From IMG/VR virus record IMGVR_UViG_2690316285_000016: a stretch of DNA of 8,002 nucleotides; one strand, written 5' to 3'. The notes below the pieces were generated by a model. It did no database searches. It saw only the letters and a program-made list of their open reading frames with translations, and was not told the origin of the DNA. This stretch comes from a virus. Its lineage: Duplodnaviria; Heunggongvirae; Uroviricota; Caudoviricetes. Both the position numbers and the translations under genes were made by a program. This document shows, one piece after another, positions 2,679 through 8,002 of this stretch. Numbering within the stretch: position 1 is the stretch's first letter; the number at the start of each line of letters is the position of its first letter.

Positions 2679-2871
2679 GAATCCTCCCGGCCGGGATAAT
2701 ATTGTGAGTAAAATAAGGAGCGGGCTGAAGTCCGGAAGTTACAGGACAATGGCAGAAGAGAGACGACAGCCCGCAATTCGAAAAAGACCGCGCAGTTGCG
2801 CAGAGTGATTACTATGGGGTATTATTCGCCAGCTGAAATATTACTTCACGTTTTATTGTTTATTCCTTGCC

Positions 2872-2900
2872 GCCCGCGTCTCCCAGCGCGGGCTTTTTTT
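2872..2900 (+). terminator. Plus-strand intrinsic terminator-like hairpin + T7 (duplicate at 4291-4319)
   Basis: GCCCGCG-tctcccag-CGCGGGC perfect 7-bp GC stem followed by TTTTTTT on the plus strand; identical copy in repeat 2. Confidence 0.5.
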
Positions 2901-2906
2901 GCCCAC

Positions 2907-2929
2907 AAGAAAACCCCTCCGGAGAGGGG
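2907..2929 (-). terminator. Minus-strand intrinsic terminator-like hairpin + U-tract (duplicate at 4326-4348)
   Basis: Minus RNA CCCCUC-UCCG-GAGGGG (6-bp GC stem, tetraloop) followed by UUUUCUU; lies 6 nt from the plus-strand terminator, forming a convergent pair. Confidence 0.5.
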
Positions 2930-3177
2930 CTAAAGCCGCGTATCTGTATCATCATGCACATGGTGCCGGGTGCCTCCCGGTGAGTTCAGCCCGGTGCCAC
3001 TAAACCCGCGTCATTCTCGTTTTGATAATCAGAGATTATACCGTCACCAGTCGCCCCTCCGCTCAGGGGGATTCACCATGCGAAATTTTTTTAACAAATG
3101 CCCAGTCTGACAGGCAACTGTCAACTTACTGAATTGTGAGCAACATAGCATTTAACGGGGAACCTGTTTTCTGCAGT

Positions 3178-3204
3178 AAAAAGGCCCACCGGAGCGGATG
3201 GGCC
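3178..3204 (-). terminator. Minus-strand hairpin + U5 (duplicate at 4597-4623)
   Basis: Minus RNA GGCCCA-(10-nt loop)-UGGGCC followed by UUUUUAC; forward A-run 3178-3182. Confidence 0.4.
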
Positions 3205-3395
3205 TGGAAGGATAGCGGTCATGTGATGCCGGTTTCCCGGTAACTCAGCACCGGTATCTGAGTCAACGTTTTCTCTACTGGGTCATTTCCGATACGCCCT
3301 GCCTGCTGACAGGCTTTCATCACATCTGAAAATATAGCACCCTGACTGATACTGTAGTACCTAAGGTTCCAGAAACTGTGATGTATCCGGCACAG

Positions 3396-3416
3396 AAAAG
3401 CCCCTCCGGAGAGGGC
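3396..3416 (-). terminator. Minus-strand hairpin + U4 (duplicate at 4815-4835); diverged homolog of the 2907-2929 element
   Basis: Minus RNA CCCUC-UCCG-GAGGG followed by GCUUUUCUG; weaker (5-bp stem). Confidence 0.35.
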
Positions 3417-3809
3417 TGGAGAGTGGCGCTATGTGCCATTGCATGATGCCGGGTGCCTCCCGGTGAATTCAGTACCAGCACCTGAATCCGCGATTATCCC
3501 ATATACCTACTCGCTGATTGCCCCTCCGCACAGGGGGATTCACCATGCCAGTTTCTTTTAACAAACTCCCCGCAAACCAGACAACAGTCAACCGCCTGAA
3601 TTGTGAAGTATTTAAAAATTTCTCCCGCTAACTGATACCCGGCTAACAGTCTGGCGTTTTCTTTTTCAGCAACGGGAAAGCAACAACCACCACACCCGCC
3701 ACCAGCACACCGTCAGCCAGCACTGACATTATCCGGCTGCTGCAATGCCATTCACAAAAACAGTAAGCAATCACTTTTTACCGTAACAGGTGATAATCCA
3801 GATATGTAT

Positions 3810-4136
3810 CTACCCCAGATGAGTAATCCGAAGTTCATCCATACCACAGGTCCTGGCTATTCTGTTGTACTCCTGAACAAGAGCAAATAATTCTGAATTA
3901 GCAACCATGAACTCATCGCAAACCCTCTGTATAGCATCACTATTCAGAATAATAACGTCTCTTCCCGAAAGACGATCAGGAGTACAGAACAAAACTGTCA
4001 AACGGCTGAAGGCCTTTGCTCGTGCTGCATTGACTATATCAATACGCTGCCTAAGGATGAAACACCCCGACGCCTCATCAATATTCACTCTACCCACACC
4101 ATATGAATGATAAATATTTAATGCTGAAAAAACCAT
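3810..4136 (-). CDS. Hypothetical protein; unrecognised cargo ORF in AT-rich insert (108 aa from first ATG at 4136; ORF-track 117 aa assumes TTG start at 4163)
   Basis: Only ORF over 100 codons in the 2.3 kb between tRNAs and nanS-p, and on the same strand as the late operon. No strong SD before either start; no motif I recognise. Local sequence is AT-rich (hand count 25 G+C in 90 nt over 4141-4230). Could be non-coding or a gene remnant. Confidence 0.35.
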   Translation of the reverse strand: MVFSALNIYHSYGVGRVNIDEASGCFILRQRIDIVNAARAKAFSRLTVLFCTPDRLSGRDVIILNSDAIQRVCDEFMVANSELFALVQEYNRIARTCGMDELRITHLG

Positions 4137-4230
4137 TAGACCGTATAACAAACACTCAATCAATACTTAACAGAACTTTTATTTTTGACAAACATAAAAT
4201 ATTTTCAACAATATCCTGAGCCAGGTATAT

Positions 4231-5036
4231 NTATGGGGTATTATTCGCCAGCTGAAATATTACTTCACGTTTTATTGTTTATTCCTTGCCGCCCGCGTCT
4301 CCCAGCGCGGGCTTTTTTTGCCCACAAGAAAACCCCTCCGGAGAGGGGCTAAAGCCGCGTATCTGTATCATCATGCACATGGTGCCGGGTGCCTCCCGGT
4401 GAGTTCAGCCCGGTGCCACTAAACCCGCGTCATTCTCGTTTTGATAATCAGAGATTATACCGTCACCAGTCGCCCCTCCGCTCAGGGGGATTCACCATGC
4501 GAAATTTTTTTAACAAATGCCCAGTCTGACAGGCAACTGTCAACTTACTGAATTGTGAGCAACATAGCATTTAACGGGGAACCTGTTTTCTGCAGTAAAA
4601 AGGCCCACCGGAGCGGATGGGCCTGGAAGGATAGCGGTCATGTGATGCCGGTTTCCCGGTAACTCAGCACCGGTATCTGAGTCAACGTTTTCTCTACTGG
4701 GTCATTTCCGATACGCCCTGCCTGCTGACAGGCTTTCATCACATCTGAAAATATAGCACCCTGACTGATACTGTAGTACCTAAGGTTCCAGAAACTGTGA
4801 TGTATCCGGCACAGAAAAGCCCCTCCGGAGAGGGCTGGAGAGTGGCGCTATGTGCCATTGCATGATGCCGGGTGCCTCCCGGTGAATTCAGTACCAGCAC
4901 CTGAATCCGCGATTATCCCATATACCTACTCGCTGATTGCCCCTCCGCACAGGGGGATTCACCATGCCAGTTTCTTTTAACAAACTCCCCGCAAAACAGA
5001 CAACTGTCAACCGTCTGAATTGTGAGACATTTAAAA
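4231..5036. repeat. Direct repeat copy 2 (~806 bp), abutting the tRNA-cluster terminator
   Basis: Same comparison as copy 1. Position 4231 is a single ambiguous n exactly at the copy boundary (copy 1 has c at 2812). Confidence 0.85.
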
Positions 5037-5058
5037 AAAAGGCCCGCAAAAGCGAGCC
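5033..5058 (-). terminator. Intrinsic terminator immediately downstream of the tRNA cluster (minus strand)
   Basis: Minus RNA GGCUCGC-UUUU-GCGGGCC (7-bp stem with one G-U) followed by UUUUUUUU (forward A8 at 5033-5040); starts 15 nt after the tRNA-Arg(UCU) 3' end. Confidence 0.5.
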
Positions 5059-5072
5059 AGGGAAAATAAGTG

Positions 5073-5149
5073 TGGCGCGTTGTACTGGATTCGAACCAGT
5101 GACCGATTGCTTAGAAGGCAATTGCTCTGTCCGGCTGAGCTAACAACGC
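5073..5149 (-). tRNA. tRNA-Arg (anticodon UCU), 77 nt with encoded CCA
   Basis: Minus-strand GCGTTGTTAGCTCAGCCGGACAGAGCAATTGCCTTCTAAGCAATCGGTCACTGGTTCGAATCCAGTACAACGCGCCA; cloverleaf built by hand: 7-bp acceptor stem, D stem GCTC/GAGC, anticodon loop CUUCUAA, T loop TTCGAAT. Third tRNA of an ileZ-argN-argO-like trio as found downstream of Q in Stx phages. Confidence 0.85.
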
Positions 5150-5162
5150 ATGATGCAGATAA

Positions 5163-5239
5163 TGGACCGCCATCGGGGACTTGAACCCCGCGCAGCCAGC
5201 TTCGAAGGCTGGCGCTCTTTCCTGATGAGCTAATGGCGG
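5163..5239 (-). tRNA. tRNA-Arg (anticodon UCG), 77 nt with encoded CCA
   Basis: Minus-strand CCGCCATTAGCTCATCAGGAAAGAGCGCCAGCCTTCGAAGCTGGCTGCGCGGGGTTCAAGTCCCCGATGGCGGTCCA; acceptor CCGCCAT/ATGGCGG, anticodon stem CCAGC/GCTGG with loop CUUCGAA, T stem CGGGG/CCCCG with TTCAAGT loop. Starts with C1-G72, which is unusual but pairs correctly. Confidence 0.8.
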
Positions 5240-5246
5240 TATGTGA

Positions 5247-5322
5247 TGGTGGCCCTTGCTGGATTTGAACCAGCGACCTGGCGATTATGAGTCGCTCGCT
5301 CTCACCACTGAGCTAAAGGGCC
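5247..5322 (-). tRNA. tRNA with CAU anticodon, most similar to tRNA-Ile2 (lysidine, ileX/ileZ-like); tRNA-Met cannot be excluded; 76 nt
   Basis: Minus-strand GGCCCTTTAGCTCAGTGGTGAGAGCGAGCGACTCATAATCGCCAGGTCGCTGGTTCAAATCCAGCAAGGGCCACCA; closely resembles E. coli ileX as I recall it; canonical cloverleaf with T loop TTCAAAT. Confidence 0.85.
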
Positions 5323-5362
5323 GGGAGCCGCATAATAACGACGCGTAATTAATTCTTCAATA

Positions 5363-6421
5363 TCATCCGTTCTGGCTGACTAAATCCTGTACTTCCCGAA
5401 CCGTCTGCTCAAAACGTTCAGTCTCCAGCTCAACGCCAATTGCACGACGCCCGAGCGCCAGTGCCGCTTTCACTGTCGAACCCAACCCCATGAAAAAATC
5501 TGCAATCAGGTCACCCGGACGACTGCTAGCGCTGATTATCTGCTGCAGCATTTCTGCCGGTTTTTCGCACGGATGTTTCCCGGGATAGAACTGCACCGGT
5601 TTATGCGTCCACACATCGGTATACGGCACCTGCACCGTCACGCCAAAATACCGCCGCAGATGTTTATATTCACTCAGCAGCTCCGCATACTGCCGGTTCA
5701 GTGAGGTATACGTATCCACCAGCTGGTGGTGGAGCTTTTCCAGTTCACCACGCCGATGCTTCTCTTCTGCCACCCGGGCAAACAGCGCCTGTAATTTCAG
5801 ATAATCGCTTTCATTCGGCAACTGCCACTGACCGGCACTGAACCAGTGCGACACCATGTTTTTCTTTCCTGTGGCATCTGCAATCTGTTTTGCCGTTATC
5901 CCCAGGGCAGCTCGCGCATCACGAAAGTAAGAAATCAGCGGGGCCATCACATGCTGTTTCAGTGCACTGCCCTTCGCCGCATACCCGGCATCTTTCGGAC
6001 GATACGGCCCCTGATAATGTTCCGCGAACAGAATGCGCTCTGTGGCGGGGAAATACGCCCGCAGGCTTTCCTTGTTGCATCCGTTCCAGCGTCCGGACGG
6101 CTTCGCCCAGATAATATGGTTCAGCACACTGAAGCGTTCACGCATCATGATTTCGATATCAGATGCCAGGCGATGACCACAGAACAGGTAAAGACTTCCG
6201 GCAGGTTTCAGCACCCGCCAGAACTGCGCCAGACACTGGTCCAGCCACTTCAGGTAATCATCGTCGCCCTTCCACTGGTTATCCCAGCCCTCAGGCTTCA
6301 CTTTAAAGTACGGCGGGTCCGTGACTATCAGGTCAACAGAATTTTCGGGTAACGACCGGATAAATTCCAGGCAGTCGGCGTTGATTAACTCACAACTGGA
6401 TATTTTTACAGTATTAAGCAT
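5363..6421 (-). CDS. Orphan DNA methyltransferase, beta-class N6-adenine/N4-cytosine (N6_N4_Mtase fold), 352 aa
   Basis: Catalytic motif IV DPPY near the N-terminus (LIVTDPPYF) and SAM-binding motif I near the C-terminus (DFFMGLGST): the permuted order typical of beta-class amino-MTases. No restriction endonuclease partner in the window. ATG 6421..6419 overlaps the upstream gene's TAA (6416..6414): ATGCTTAA. Confidence 0.85.
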   Translation of the reverse strand: MLNTVKISSCELINADCLEFIRSLPENSVDLIVTDPPYFKVKPEGWDNQWKGDDDYLKWLDQCLAQFWRVLKPAGSLYLFCGHRLASDIEIMMRERFSVLNHIIWAKPSGRWNGCNKESLRAYFPATERILFAEHYQGPYRPKDAGYAAKGSALKQHVMAPLISYFRDARAALGITAKQIADATGKKNMVSHWFSAGQWQLPNESDYLKLQALFARVAEEKHRRGELEKLHHQLVDTYTSLNRQYAELLSEYKHLRRYFGVTVQVPYTDVWTHKPVQFYPGKHPCEKPAEMLQQIISASSRPGDLIADFFMGLGSTVKAALALGRRAIGVELETERFEQTVREVQDLVSQNG

Positions 6422-6815
6422 GGATCATTAAGCCTGTCTCTGATAGGCTCATTCTGCTTTTGCGCAAAGCAGTGGGCCTGAGGTTTGCTTGTGAACCCAA
6501 CGCATGAGNNNNNNNNNNNNNNNNNNNNNNNNNNNNNNNNNNNNNNNNNNNNNNNNNNNNNNNNNNNNNNNNNNNNNNNNNNNNNNNNNNNNNNNNNNNN
6601 NNNNNNNNNNNNNNNNNNNNNNNNNNNNNNNNNNNNNNNNNNNNNNNNNNNNNNNNNNNNNNNNNNNNNNNNNNNNNNNNNNNNNNNNNNNNNNNNNNNN
6701 NNNNNNNNNNNNNNNNNNNNNNNNNNNNNNNNNNNNNNNNNNNNNNNNNNNNNNNNNNNNNNNNNNNNNNNNNNNNNNNNCTGGCGGTTTCTGTCATATC
6801 CTGCTGTTTTAGCAT
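6414..6815 (-). CDS. Hypothetical protein upstream of and overlapping the methylase; interior N-masked (only MLKQQDMTETA... and ...HALGSQANLRPTALRKSRMSLSETGLMIHA visible)
   Basis: Candidate start ATG 6815..6813 preceded by AAGGAAAAG SD-like sequence; C-terminal fragment 6508..6417 ends in a TAA that overlaps the methylase start. Both visible ends are in the same frame only if the N-run length (272) is exact, which cannot be verified. Confidence 0.3.
   Translation of the reverse strand: MLKQQDMTETAXXXXXXXXXXXXXXXXXXXXXXXXXXXXXXXXXXXXXXXXXXXXXXXXXXXXXXXXXXXXXXXXXXXXXXXXXXXXXXXXXXXXXXXXXXXXHALGSQANLRPTALRKSRMSLSETGLMIHA
6509..6780. other. Run of 272 N (masked or unresolved sequence)
   Basis: Literal n characters in the sequence. 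Confidence 0.99.
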
Positions 6816-6847
6816 GTCTTTTCCTTTTCCGGTTAACGTGACACACC

Positions 6848-7585
6848 NNNNNNNNNNNNNNNNNNNNNNNNNNNNNNNNNNNNNNNNNNNNNNNNNNNNN
6901 NNNNNNNNNNNNNNNNNNNNNNNNNNNNNNNNNNNNNNNNNNNNNNNNNNNNNNNNNNNNNNNNNNNNNNNNNNNNNNNNNNNNNNNNNNNNNNNNNNNN
7001 NNNNNNNNNNNNNNNNNNNNNNNNNNNNNNNNNNNNNNNNNNNNNNNNNNNNNNNNNNNNNNNNNNNNNNNNNNNNNNNNNNNNNNNNNNNNNNNNNNNN
7101 NNNNNNNNNNNNNNNNNNNNNNNNNNNNNNNNNNNNNNNNNNNNNNNNNNNNNNNNNNNNNNNNNNNNNNNNNNNNNNNNNNNNNNNNNNNNNNNNNNNN
7201 NNNNNNNNNNNNNNNNNNNNNNNNNNNNNNNNNNNNNNNNNNNNNNNNNNNNNNNNNNNNNNNNNNNNNNNNNNNNNNNNNNNNNNNNNNNNNNNNNNNN
7301 NNNNNNNNNNNNNNNNNNNNNNNNNNNNNNNNNNNNNNNNNNNNNNNNNNNNNNNNNNNNNNNNNNNNNNNNNNNNNNNNNNNNNNNNNNNNNNNNNNNN
7401 NNNNNNNNNNNNNNNNNNNNNNNNNNNNNNNNNNNNNNNNNNNNNNNNNNNNNNNNNNNNNNNNNNNNNNNNNNNNNNNNNNNNNNNNNNNNNNNNNNNN
7501 NNNNNNNNNNNNNNNNNNNNNNNNNNNNNNNNNNNNNNNNNNNNNNNNNNNNNNNNNNNNNNNNNNNNNNNNNNNNNNNNNNNNN
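6848..7585. other. Run of 738 N (masked or unresolved sequence); likely hides the Q 3' end and the late promoter/qut region
   Basis: Literal n characters; every ORF-track protein containing X runs is an artefact of these blocks. Confidence 0.99.
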
Positions 7586-8002
7586 ACCTAGTTACCTTTT
7601 TTAACTGCCGCTCAGCCCATGCTTCTTCAATATCAAACCGGGTCACCAGCGCATCATAAAATTTCTTAACTGTTTTTTCCCATGACGCGCGTGTTATCTG
7701 GTTTGTCACCTCGCATATAGCATTAAATGCCTCCGTTGATGGTAGTCTTTCATAGCCACGACCACCACAACGCTGGCAGTCTCTGATAACAGGCATACCA
7801 CGTTTTACCGACTCTTCACGATGAATGGCGACACCACGCCCACGGCAATCCTTACAGGCGGTGGAAACCTCACCCTTTCCGCCACACTCCGGACAGGCAA
7901 CTTTTACCACCTCCCTGACTTTTTTCCATTCTTCCCAGTAAGACGGATACACACCTTTCGTACACTTTGCCCATACCGGCGGCTTACCATCCGGATACTG
8001 GA
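7586..8002 (-). CDS. Partial CDS (5' end beyond window, 3' end runs into N-mask): Q-family late antiterminator-like protein with three DnaJ-type CxxCxGxG zinc-finger motifs
   Basis: Minus-strand frame open to the window edge: ...QYPDGKPPVWAKCTKGVYPSYWEEWKKVREVVKVACPECGGKGEVSTACKDCRGRGVAIHREESVKRGMPVIRDCQRCGGRGYERLPSTEAFNAICEVTNQITRASWEKTVKKFYDALVTRFDIEEAWAERQLKKVTR. The C-terminal pattern (C.RC.G.GY.R.P ... W..TVK..YDALV ... VTR) matches my recollection of QuuD/QuuQ-type Q antiterminators. The ORF-track 'Met' at 7952 is GTG and is not a supported start. Confidence 0.5.

Follow-up and report, generated by a model that had tools for sequence, protein, structure and literature searches.

An M.EcoGII-family adenine methyltransferase in the late region of a Shigella sonnei-type prophage and the conserved leader in front of it

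The tailed-phage record IMGVR_UViG_2690316285_000016 (Caudoviricetes) was analysed over a stretch of 8,002 nucleotides (nt), hereafter the window. On its minus strand, at positions 5363-6421, the list of open reading frames (ORFs) of the window contains an intact frame of 352 amino acids (aa) with an ATG start. We assign it, from the ORF itself, a match to PF01555, a PADLOC profile and its identity to published sequences, as a beta-class N6-adenine DNA methyltransferase of the M.EcoGII family. The surrounding genes all lie on the minus strand and follow the order Q, methyltransferase, three tRNAs, cargo region, SASA/nanS-p esterase, holin and DUF1327. The gene thus has the antiterminator gene Q on its upstream side and, on its downstream side, the tRNAs, then the stx/cargo slot and the lysis genes, which is where an earlier account made from the sequence alone (the preliminary description) had placed it, just before the tRNAs and the cargo slot. 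The protein is of a known kind and already catalogued; the family, with its prophage home, orphan status and context-free methylation, has been published.

The Pfam profile N6_N4_Mtase (PF01555) is matched by residues 29-340 with an E-value of 7.9e-42 and a score of 144.1 bits, against a curated cut-off of 26.7 bits, over profile positions 1-219 of 221. The PADLOC profile MTase_II (PDLC03265) matches with an E-value of 5e-163. In the translation, the catalytic motif IV, DPPY, occupies residues 35-38 (6308-6319, minus strand) and is invariant in the protein alignment; motif I, the FxGxG element that binds S-adenosylmethionine, reads FMGLG at residues 310-314 (5480-5494, minus strand, from translation and alignment), with its Phe and both Gly residues retained. 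This order, motif IV followed by motif I, is that of the beta class. A Dam-type alpha-class phage methyltransferase was considered and rejected, since it needs FxGxG first and DPPY last, the opposite of the order seen here. The Dam homologues of Shiga toxin (Stx) phages are separate genes in a published listing (PMC6602927).

By sequence, the nearest solved structures are those of M.BceJIV (8urk/9c3u), M.RsrI, CcrM, M.MboIIA and M1.HpyAVI, all of the beta class, and these enzymes, together with M.PvuII, have the catalytic core and the motif order in common with the window protein. The solved beta-class enzymes are sequence-specific and 230-370 aa long, and they align to two core halves of the window protein (residues ~8-140 and ~270-345; E-values of 7e-25 to 1e-14), whereas its central segment of ~130 residues has no counterpart in their structures. 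This segment is helical in an AlphaFold2 model of low confidence. The enzyme has its DPPY motif towards the N-terminus and FxGxG towards the C-terminus, and the probably helical segment between them would bind DNA. The model was built from a 35-sequence alignment (74-94% identity) and is poor (mean predicted local distance difference test score 63.5, predicted template modelling score 0.49), so that it serves solely to repeat the family assignment through a fold search: the best 46 Foldseek matches in the PDB were all DNA methyltransferases, with beta-class enzymes leading, at TM-scores of only 0.34-0.61. Taken with the PF01555 match and the motif order, these structural relatives bear out the beta-class amino-methyltransferase of the preliminary description, and alignment with the published M.EcoGII sequence places the protein in the M.EcoGII family. 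Opposite the gene, on the plus strand, a 168-aa ORF runs antisense to it (5846-6352) and is open in E. coli O121 too; conservation of the methyltransferase coding sequence opposite is the most likely reason why this frame is open at all.

The exact window protein is already public under the name 'MULTISPECIES: site-specific DNA-methyltransferase [Shigella]', on at least 997 contigs, and is encoded by S. sonnei chromosomes such as that of strain 53G. When it is aligned with M.EcoGII (supplement file 5 of PMC11551740), 324 of the 348 aligned residues are identical. The resulting identity of at least 93% is a lower bound, because the printed M.EcoGII text contains machine-reading errors (for example NHHIWA and GRRRAIG). 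M.EcoGII, whose twin is M.EcoGI, comes from E. coli O104:H4 C227-11, where it is prophage-borne and has no endonuclease partner. It shows the same motif order as the window protein, and its first 102 residues are identical; the two proteins differ by ~20 substitutions, with Leu for Ser313 and Gly for Ser197 among those of the window protein, in length (349 against 352 aa), at the C-terminus (...DLIV in M.EcoGII, ...DLVSQNG in the window protein) and in host lineage, which here is Shigella.

Whatever the sequence context, adenine is a substrate of M.EcoGII, which in vitro methylates up to 99% of deoxyadenosines (Murray et al., Nucleic Acids Res 2018; PMC5778455) and is also active on single-stranded DNA and, more weakly, on RNA (PMC5778455). 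It is borne by a prophage, unexpressed in the lysogen and harmful when made constitutively (PMC5778455). Silence in the lysogen is reported for both M.EcoGI and M.EcoGII (PMC5778455) and likewise for the homologues in O111 Shiga toxin-producing E. coli, which are tagged 'nonspecific'; apart from GATC and CTGCAG, no motif was detected in the lysogen methylome (PMC6602927). Furthermore, reconstructed ancestors of the M.EcoGII clade retain non-specificity (PMC11551740). The preliminary description had hinted at the broad-specificity adenine methyltransferases of prophages, and the gene does belong to that family in the form of M.EcoGII. The specificity of the enzyme, which was put forward there as worth testing, is no novelty, since it has a published answer for the near-identical M.EcoGII, which is non-specific for adenine (PMC5778455).

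The database name of the protein, 'site-specific DNA-methyltransferase', would instead point to a sequence-specific modification methylase, either a stand-alone relic of a restriction-modification system or a regulator that acts at specific sites, as CcrM and Dam do, and M.PflMI, the nearest site-specific relative of the clade, is indeed similar in overall predicted structure (PMC11551740). Such an identity is nevertheless hardly credible for a protein at least 93% identical to an enzyme that methylates up to 99% of adenines, in a clade where ancestors deeper than the window allele are still non-specific (PMC11551740), and with an endonuclease gene near none of the relatives examined. Neither the ORF list nor Pfam nor PADLOC gave an endonuclease-like ORF in the window, and the annotations of Stx2_95, phiP27, E. 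coli O121 and five S. sonnei genomes show none in the neighbourhood of the gene. The earlier statement that no cognate endonuclease is present therefore stands for the window and for its annotated relatives, and a Type II restriction-modification system was rejected because the adjacent cognate endonuclease gene is absent from the window and from the annotated surroundings of seven relatives. A second enzyme, M.EcoGIX, was considered as a broad-specificity prophage enzyme and dropped. It is described as an orphan adenine methyltransferase of relaxed specificity on plasmid pESBL of the same outbreak strain, conjugation-linked and specific for single-stranded DNA (PMC7736820), and this description sets it apart from the window prophage gene as a member of another family.

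The gene is widespread, being carried by 247 phage records at 84-95.5% nucleotide identity, mostly Stx2-converting phages. When the gene and the tRNAs were used as one query against 5426 complete E. coli genomes, 1750 of these covered 80% or more of it. Phage 1720a-02, which has been named as a carrier of a very similar enzyme (PMC5778455), is one of the phages matched, at a nucleotide identity of 95.2%. In the Stx phages (phiP27, where the gene is L24, phages of the Stx2a, Stx2c and Stx2d types, and 1720a-02) the gene is a 'DNA methylase', and the order is Q, a 65-aa ORF, methylase, ileZ/arg tRNAs, stx/cargo, nanS-p and holin. Two differences from the window were noted. The cargo slot of the Stx phages holds stxAB, whereas that of the window is without stx and contains copies of the small RNA (sRNA) STnc100 and small ORFs; in addition, the Q of the window is of the PF03589 type, whereas the Q proteins of Stx2_95 and phiP27 are short and annotated differently. 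Beyond E. coli, the Salmonella, Enterobacter and Photorhabdus loci have the gene between a Q, which belongs to PF06530 or to PF03589, two unrelated families, and a phage lysozyme. At the Xenorhabdus locus checked, a lysozyme gene is downstream, but an IS110 transposase is upstream.

The window is interrupted by two runs of N between Q and the methyltransferase, and for this part we used two unmasked twins, S. sonnei 53G (locus L208) and E. coli O121 (locus L002). Window positions 4232-6508, 6781-6847 and 7586-8002 are 100% identical to S. sonnei genomes, and comparison with these shows what the runs cover. The first (6509-6780, 272 nt, without strand) corresponds to 226 nt containing the bulk of a 65-aa ORF, a terminator and the beginning of the leader, and the second (6848-7585, 738 nt, without strand) to 194 nt in which the very end of Q is followed by a pR'-like promoter and a tR'-like terminator. 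Both runs are longer than their S. sonnei counterparts, either because the masking does not keep length or because the source of the window has extra DNA there. Upstream of the second run, the C-terminal part of Q (7586-8002, minus strand) is of the PF03589 type with a DnaJ-like zinc finger in its translation and matches the S. sonnei Q at 100%; its orthologue in L002 matches PF03589 with an E-value of 2.4e-50.

Because the window is masked between Q and the gene, the layout of promoter and terminators was taken from the twins. There, a lambda-like late promoter (TTGATT, 16 nt, TGgTAAATT, read by eye) lies between Q and the gene, and in L002 two terminators separate Q from the methyltransferase, a strong one at 5590-5605, 60-80 nt past the promoter, and another at 5916-5933, with the 65-aa ORF between them. 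This arrangement fits Q-dependent read-through.

The 65-aa ORF is the real upstream gene. Its first 11 codons (MLKQQDMTETA) are readable in the window at 6781-6815, minus strand, where they match L208 from 5653 onwards at 100%. In the twins (L208 5653-5850) it ends 150 nt before the methyltransferase start and is followed by its own terminator. The product belongs to phrog_331 (E-value 1.4e-37), and its matches to winged-helix Pfam families are sub-threshold. In 58 of 74 species loci a homologue, with identity down to 39% in Xenorhabdus and Photorhabdus, is the immediate upstream neighbour of the methyltransferase gene and has the same orientation. This winged-helix-like protein could act as a regulator of the methyltransferase.

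These data bear on how the methyltransferase is translated. The preliminary description had reported a start/stop overlap with an upstream gene and, from it, translational coupling. The overlap sequence, ATGCTTAA, is indeed present at 6421-6414 on the minus strand; the upstream gene is not. The frame that ends at the TAA of ATGCTTAA appears as a 512-aa ORF (6414-7952) that crosses both N runs, and it is only apparent because these runs hide stop codons. In both twins the same frame amounts to a 60-aa ORF with a TTG start, which overlaps the 3' end of the 65-aa gene, traverses the terminator hairpin and a 12-bp hairpin, and is called in none of seven annotated relatives. Some observations would suit co-translation through ATGCTTAA: the frame stays free of stops over 31 readable codons in the window and over 60 in the twins, and the start has no Shine-Dalgarno sequence, so that help with initiation is plausible. 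A four-codon mini-ORF (ATG ATC CAT GCT TAA), with an AGG 4 nt upstream, also overlaps the methyltransferase start, and it may play some part there; it is of the E. coli/Shigella type only and absent outside it. Against coupling, in only ~13 of 70 loci (one locus per species) does any ORF of 40 aa or more end at the methyltransferase start. Of the 96 distinct leaders, 36 have one frame open over 40 codons or more and 39 have another, and one-nucleotide indels part the two groups. A coding function of the leader was rejected because no single frame stays open across the leaders. With the real upstream gene ending 150 nt before the start and an intrinsic terminator following it, we reject coupling to the upstream gene as very improbable.

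The leader itself is ~145 nt long and ends at the ATG. Its 3' part of 87 nt (6422-6508, minus strand) is readable in the window and is backed by leader alignments and pair counts, and its full length is seen in the twins (L002 5935-6079, L208 5856-6000). Apart from the missing Shine-Dalgarno sequence before the methyltransferase ATG, the leader has an in-frame TGA at -9 to -7, three codons upstream of the ATG. A GATC (Dam) site at about -7 to -4 (within 6422-6428) is kept in nearly all leaders and contributes to this TGA. Across Escherichia, Trabulsiella, Mixta, Kosakonia, Enterobacter, Klebsiella, Salmonella, Citrobacter, Buttiauxella, Providencia and Morganella, the leader is more conserved than the protein, with a mean column identity of 75-79% where the proteins are 61-80% identical to that of the window, and its variation is concentrated in one short linker, also the site of indels. 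The 21-mer AATGGGCGGCTGGTGGGTGTT is present in 120 or more viral contigs, and in 114 of its 121 matches the methyltransferase starts 129-132 nt downstream. The other seven comprise three that are too near a contig end to judge and four that precede a different gene. These four phage contigs (L101, L139, L165 and L184) keep only the first ~55 nt of the leader and continue with an AT-rich 237-aa gene in place of its remainder and of the methyltransferase, which suggests a recombination breakpoint inside the leader.

Single leaders fold better than their shuffles, with z-scores of -2.6 to -5.0, values which are not probabilities. Two sets of helices are kept in the leader, and they are mutually exclusive. 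Fold A is a three-way junction formed by UGGGC/GCCCA, the 12-bp hairpin and UUnGCU.../...AGCnAA. In fold B, AUGGGC is paired with GCUCAU, the GCUUU/AAAGC hairpin is extended, and a long-range GGUCA-AAGC / GCUU-UGAUC helix covers the bases just 5' of the AUG. Over the 96 leaders, the paired fraction is 88.9% for fold A and 92.0% for fold B, against 29-49% for slid partners, figures that come from related sequences with few independent changes and from structures derived from the same sequences as were tested. The clearest covariation is at pair 67-93 of the fold A hairpin (UA 37, CG 34, AU 16, UG 4), followed here by pair 107-129 of the extended hairpin (CG 57, UA 21). In the long-range helix, AU-to-GC compensations occur in a few sequences, which we read as Morganellaceae leaders.

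No Rfam 15 family matches the leader at its gathering threshold or at E-values up to 5. A match to P26 was dismissed, as it scores 24 bits against the 36 needed and reflects hairpin resemblance only. The consensus scan of L002 5400-7600 gave no sigma-70 site within the leader, and a promoter inside it was rejected on that ground and because the extended -10-like motif varies at -11, the position that matters most.

From this conservation and folding, the leader is a probable cis-regulatory RNA that would limit translation of a toxic enzyme. More specifically, it may be an undescribed cis-acting RNA with two folds, one of which seals the AUG-proximal stretch, and which, possibly with the 65-aa protein, confines the methyltransferase to the late lytic phase; we hold this fuller picture only tentatively, at somewhat less than even odds. 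The leader is the only item in this analysis that may be new.

The same elements could be arranged differently, as an autonomous module that is not driven by Q and in which the 65-aa protein would be a C-protein-like controller acting on a promoter situated where the leader begins, in addition to the leader RNA. The recurrence of the small ORF directly upstream in 58 of 74 species loci would suit such a module, yet 16 loci have the leader without it. The weak winged-helix similarity of the 65-aa protein would suit a controller, although every such match is below the Pfam threshold. A terminator does stand between the small ORF and the leader, which carries an extended -10-like TGTG(R)AAAT at its 5' end and contains a near-palindrome, GCTTTAGCGCTAAAGC. 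However, about half of the variants lack the critical A at -11 (compare TGTGGAAAT and TGTGGTAAAT), and there is no conserved -35. Together with a location between Q and the lysis genes that persists whichever of the two unrelated Q families is present, this makes an autonomous module quite unlikely, and we favour transcription that depends on Q.

A further question is whether the Shigella allele encodes a fully active enzyme. At residue 313, the x before the last Gly of FxGxG, the window protein alone has Leu, where 185 of 186 relatives (61-98% identical to the window protein) have Ser; at residue 197 it has, nearly alone, Gly, where 183 of the 186 have Ser. The Leu313 codon is TTG (5485-5483), one base change from Ser, and the residue is shared by all five S. 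sonnei genomes examined. The substitution might reduce cofactor binding, although Val at the equivalent position of the active CcrM counts against this. These replacements in an allele fixed in S. sonnei-type genomes could mean that the gene is a decaying remnant, with an intact ORF, an enzyme inactivated or weakened by S313L (and S197G) and a defective prophage that is no longer selected. Transposases of the IS3 family and others do flank and interrupt the prophage in S. sonnei genomes, which suits a decaying element, and the N-terminus is disrupted in a S. boydii relative. On the other side, the reading frame is complete, and the x of FxGxG is variable in active beta-class enzymes (Val in CcrM, Thr in TTHA0409). 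Compared with the nearest E. coli allele, there are 18 synonymous and 10 non-synonymous codon differences, unlike a free-running pseudogene. Over the near alleles, ratios of 18:10, 24:13 and 27:19 give no verdict on relaxed selection, and to judge from these codons the differences do not show decay of the gene. We regard a decaying remnant as rather unlikely.

The account that we prefer is that the window gene is an orthologue of M.EcoGII, a non-specific N6-adenine methyltransferase that lambdoid prophages of E. coli and related bacteria carry, in a prophage of the S. sonnei type, with late, Q-dependent and leader-controlled expression; we put its probability at roughly 0.8. In the lysogen, the gene would be silent, with transcripts stopping at the terminators between Q and the methyltransferase. 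Late in the lytic cycle, RNA polymerase modified by Q would pass both terminators, so that the methyltransferase would be transcribed. Translation would be independent of the upstream gene, and the structured leader of ~145 nt would probably limit or time the synthesis of an enzyme that is toxic when constitutive. The enzyme would then methylate adenines throughout the replicating phage DNA, regardless of sequence, and the progeny would thus be protected from many adenine-sensitive restriction systems of the next host. The identity of the gene, its class, its orphan status, the gene order and the conservation of the leader were established within this analysis; non-specificity, silence in the lysogen and toxicity are taken from the published work on the orthologue M.EcoGII; and we infer the late Q-dependent expression, the anti-restriction role and the function of the leader.

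Several observations weigh against this account. S313L, and with it S197G, may weaken the enzyme, and the S. sonnei prophage is peppered with insertion sequence (IS) elements and may be defective. The layout between Q and the gene comes from twins whose sequence is shorter than the N runs of the window. Finally, some transcription could be independent of Q, given the weak extended -10-like motif TGTGGTAAAT found where the leader begins.

Downstream of the methyltransferase, three tRNAs (5073-5322, minus strand; ARAGORN and annotation), one with the anticodon CAU, one Arg-UCG and one Arg-UCU, are ileZ/argN/argO-like in relatives. The first, at 5247-5322 (anticodon CAT), is a Met tRNA according to ARAGORN and tRNA-Ile (ileZ) according to RefSeq and phage records. 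Between the methyltransferase stop and the first tRNA, a sigma-70 promoter-like site (TTGAAG, 17 nt spacer, TATTAT; 5332-5360, minus strand) was found as a consensus match only, and it is also present in L002. A terminator scan gave an intrinsic terminator-like hairpin with a T run 3' of the tRNAs (5031-5058, minus strand). Past the cargo region, the ORFs and Pfam matches identify the SASA/nanS-p esterase (2678-825), a phage-21-type holin (752-459) and the DUF1327 protein (454-140), all on the minus strand.

The cargo region contains a direct repeat of 806 bp (2813-3618 and 4232-5037, 99.3% identical) around a 613-bp insert (3619-4230), with a single N at the junction (4231). None of the S. 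sonnei genomes examined shows this arrangement of repeat, insert and repeat. The copy nearer the tRNAs is 100% S. sonnei-like, the more distant one has 6 mismatches, and the insert is present in E. coli prophages without the methyltransferase (strain 2D). The duplication has the look of a scaffold join or of recombination between the late regions of two prophages. Four copies of the STnc100 sRNA (RF02076) lie on the minus strand, two per repeat unit (2901-3110, 3388-3577, 4320-4529 and 4807-4996), scoring 122-161 bits against a gathering score of 47, and fill the slot where Stx phages have stxAB. As late-region cargo, the insert encodes, on the minus strand, a 117-aa protein of phrog_2873 (3810-4163), a group without assigned function, with no match in Pfam, NCBIfam or PADLOC, and a 43-aa protein (3643-3774), whose counterpart in E. 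coli strain 2D is annotated as DUF3927 family. Most S. sonnei genomes have an IS3-family element of ~1.26 kb past the tRNAs (loci L205-L207 and L209, at 7794/9057); it is absent from strain 53G and from the window, where the equivalent position is 4628-4632.

M.EcoGII is a commercial reagent for chromatin footprinting, and the gene call itself adds little. The Ser-to-Leu change in the cofactor motif of the Shigella allele offers a natural test of how important this residue is in M.EcoGII. The M.EcoGII literature examined gives no explanation of how phages keep a toxic enzyme off until late; a leader without a Shine-Dalgarno sequence and a 65-aa winged-helix-like partner are concrete candidates for that control.

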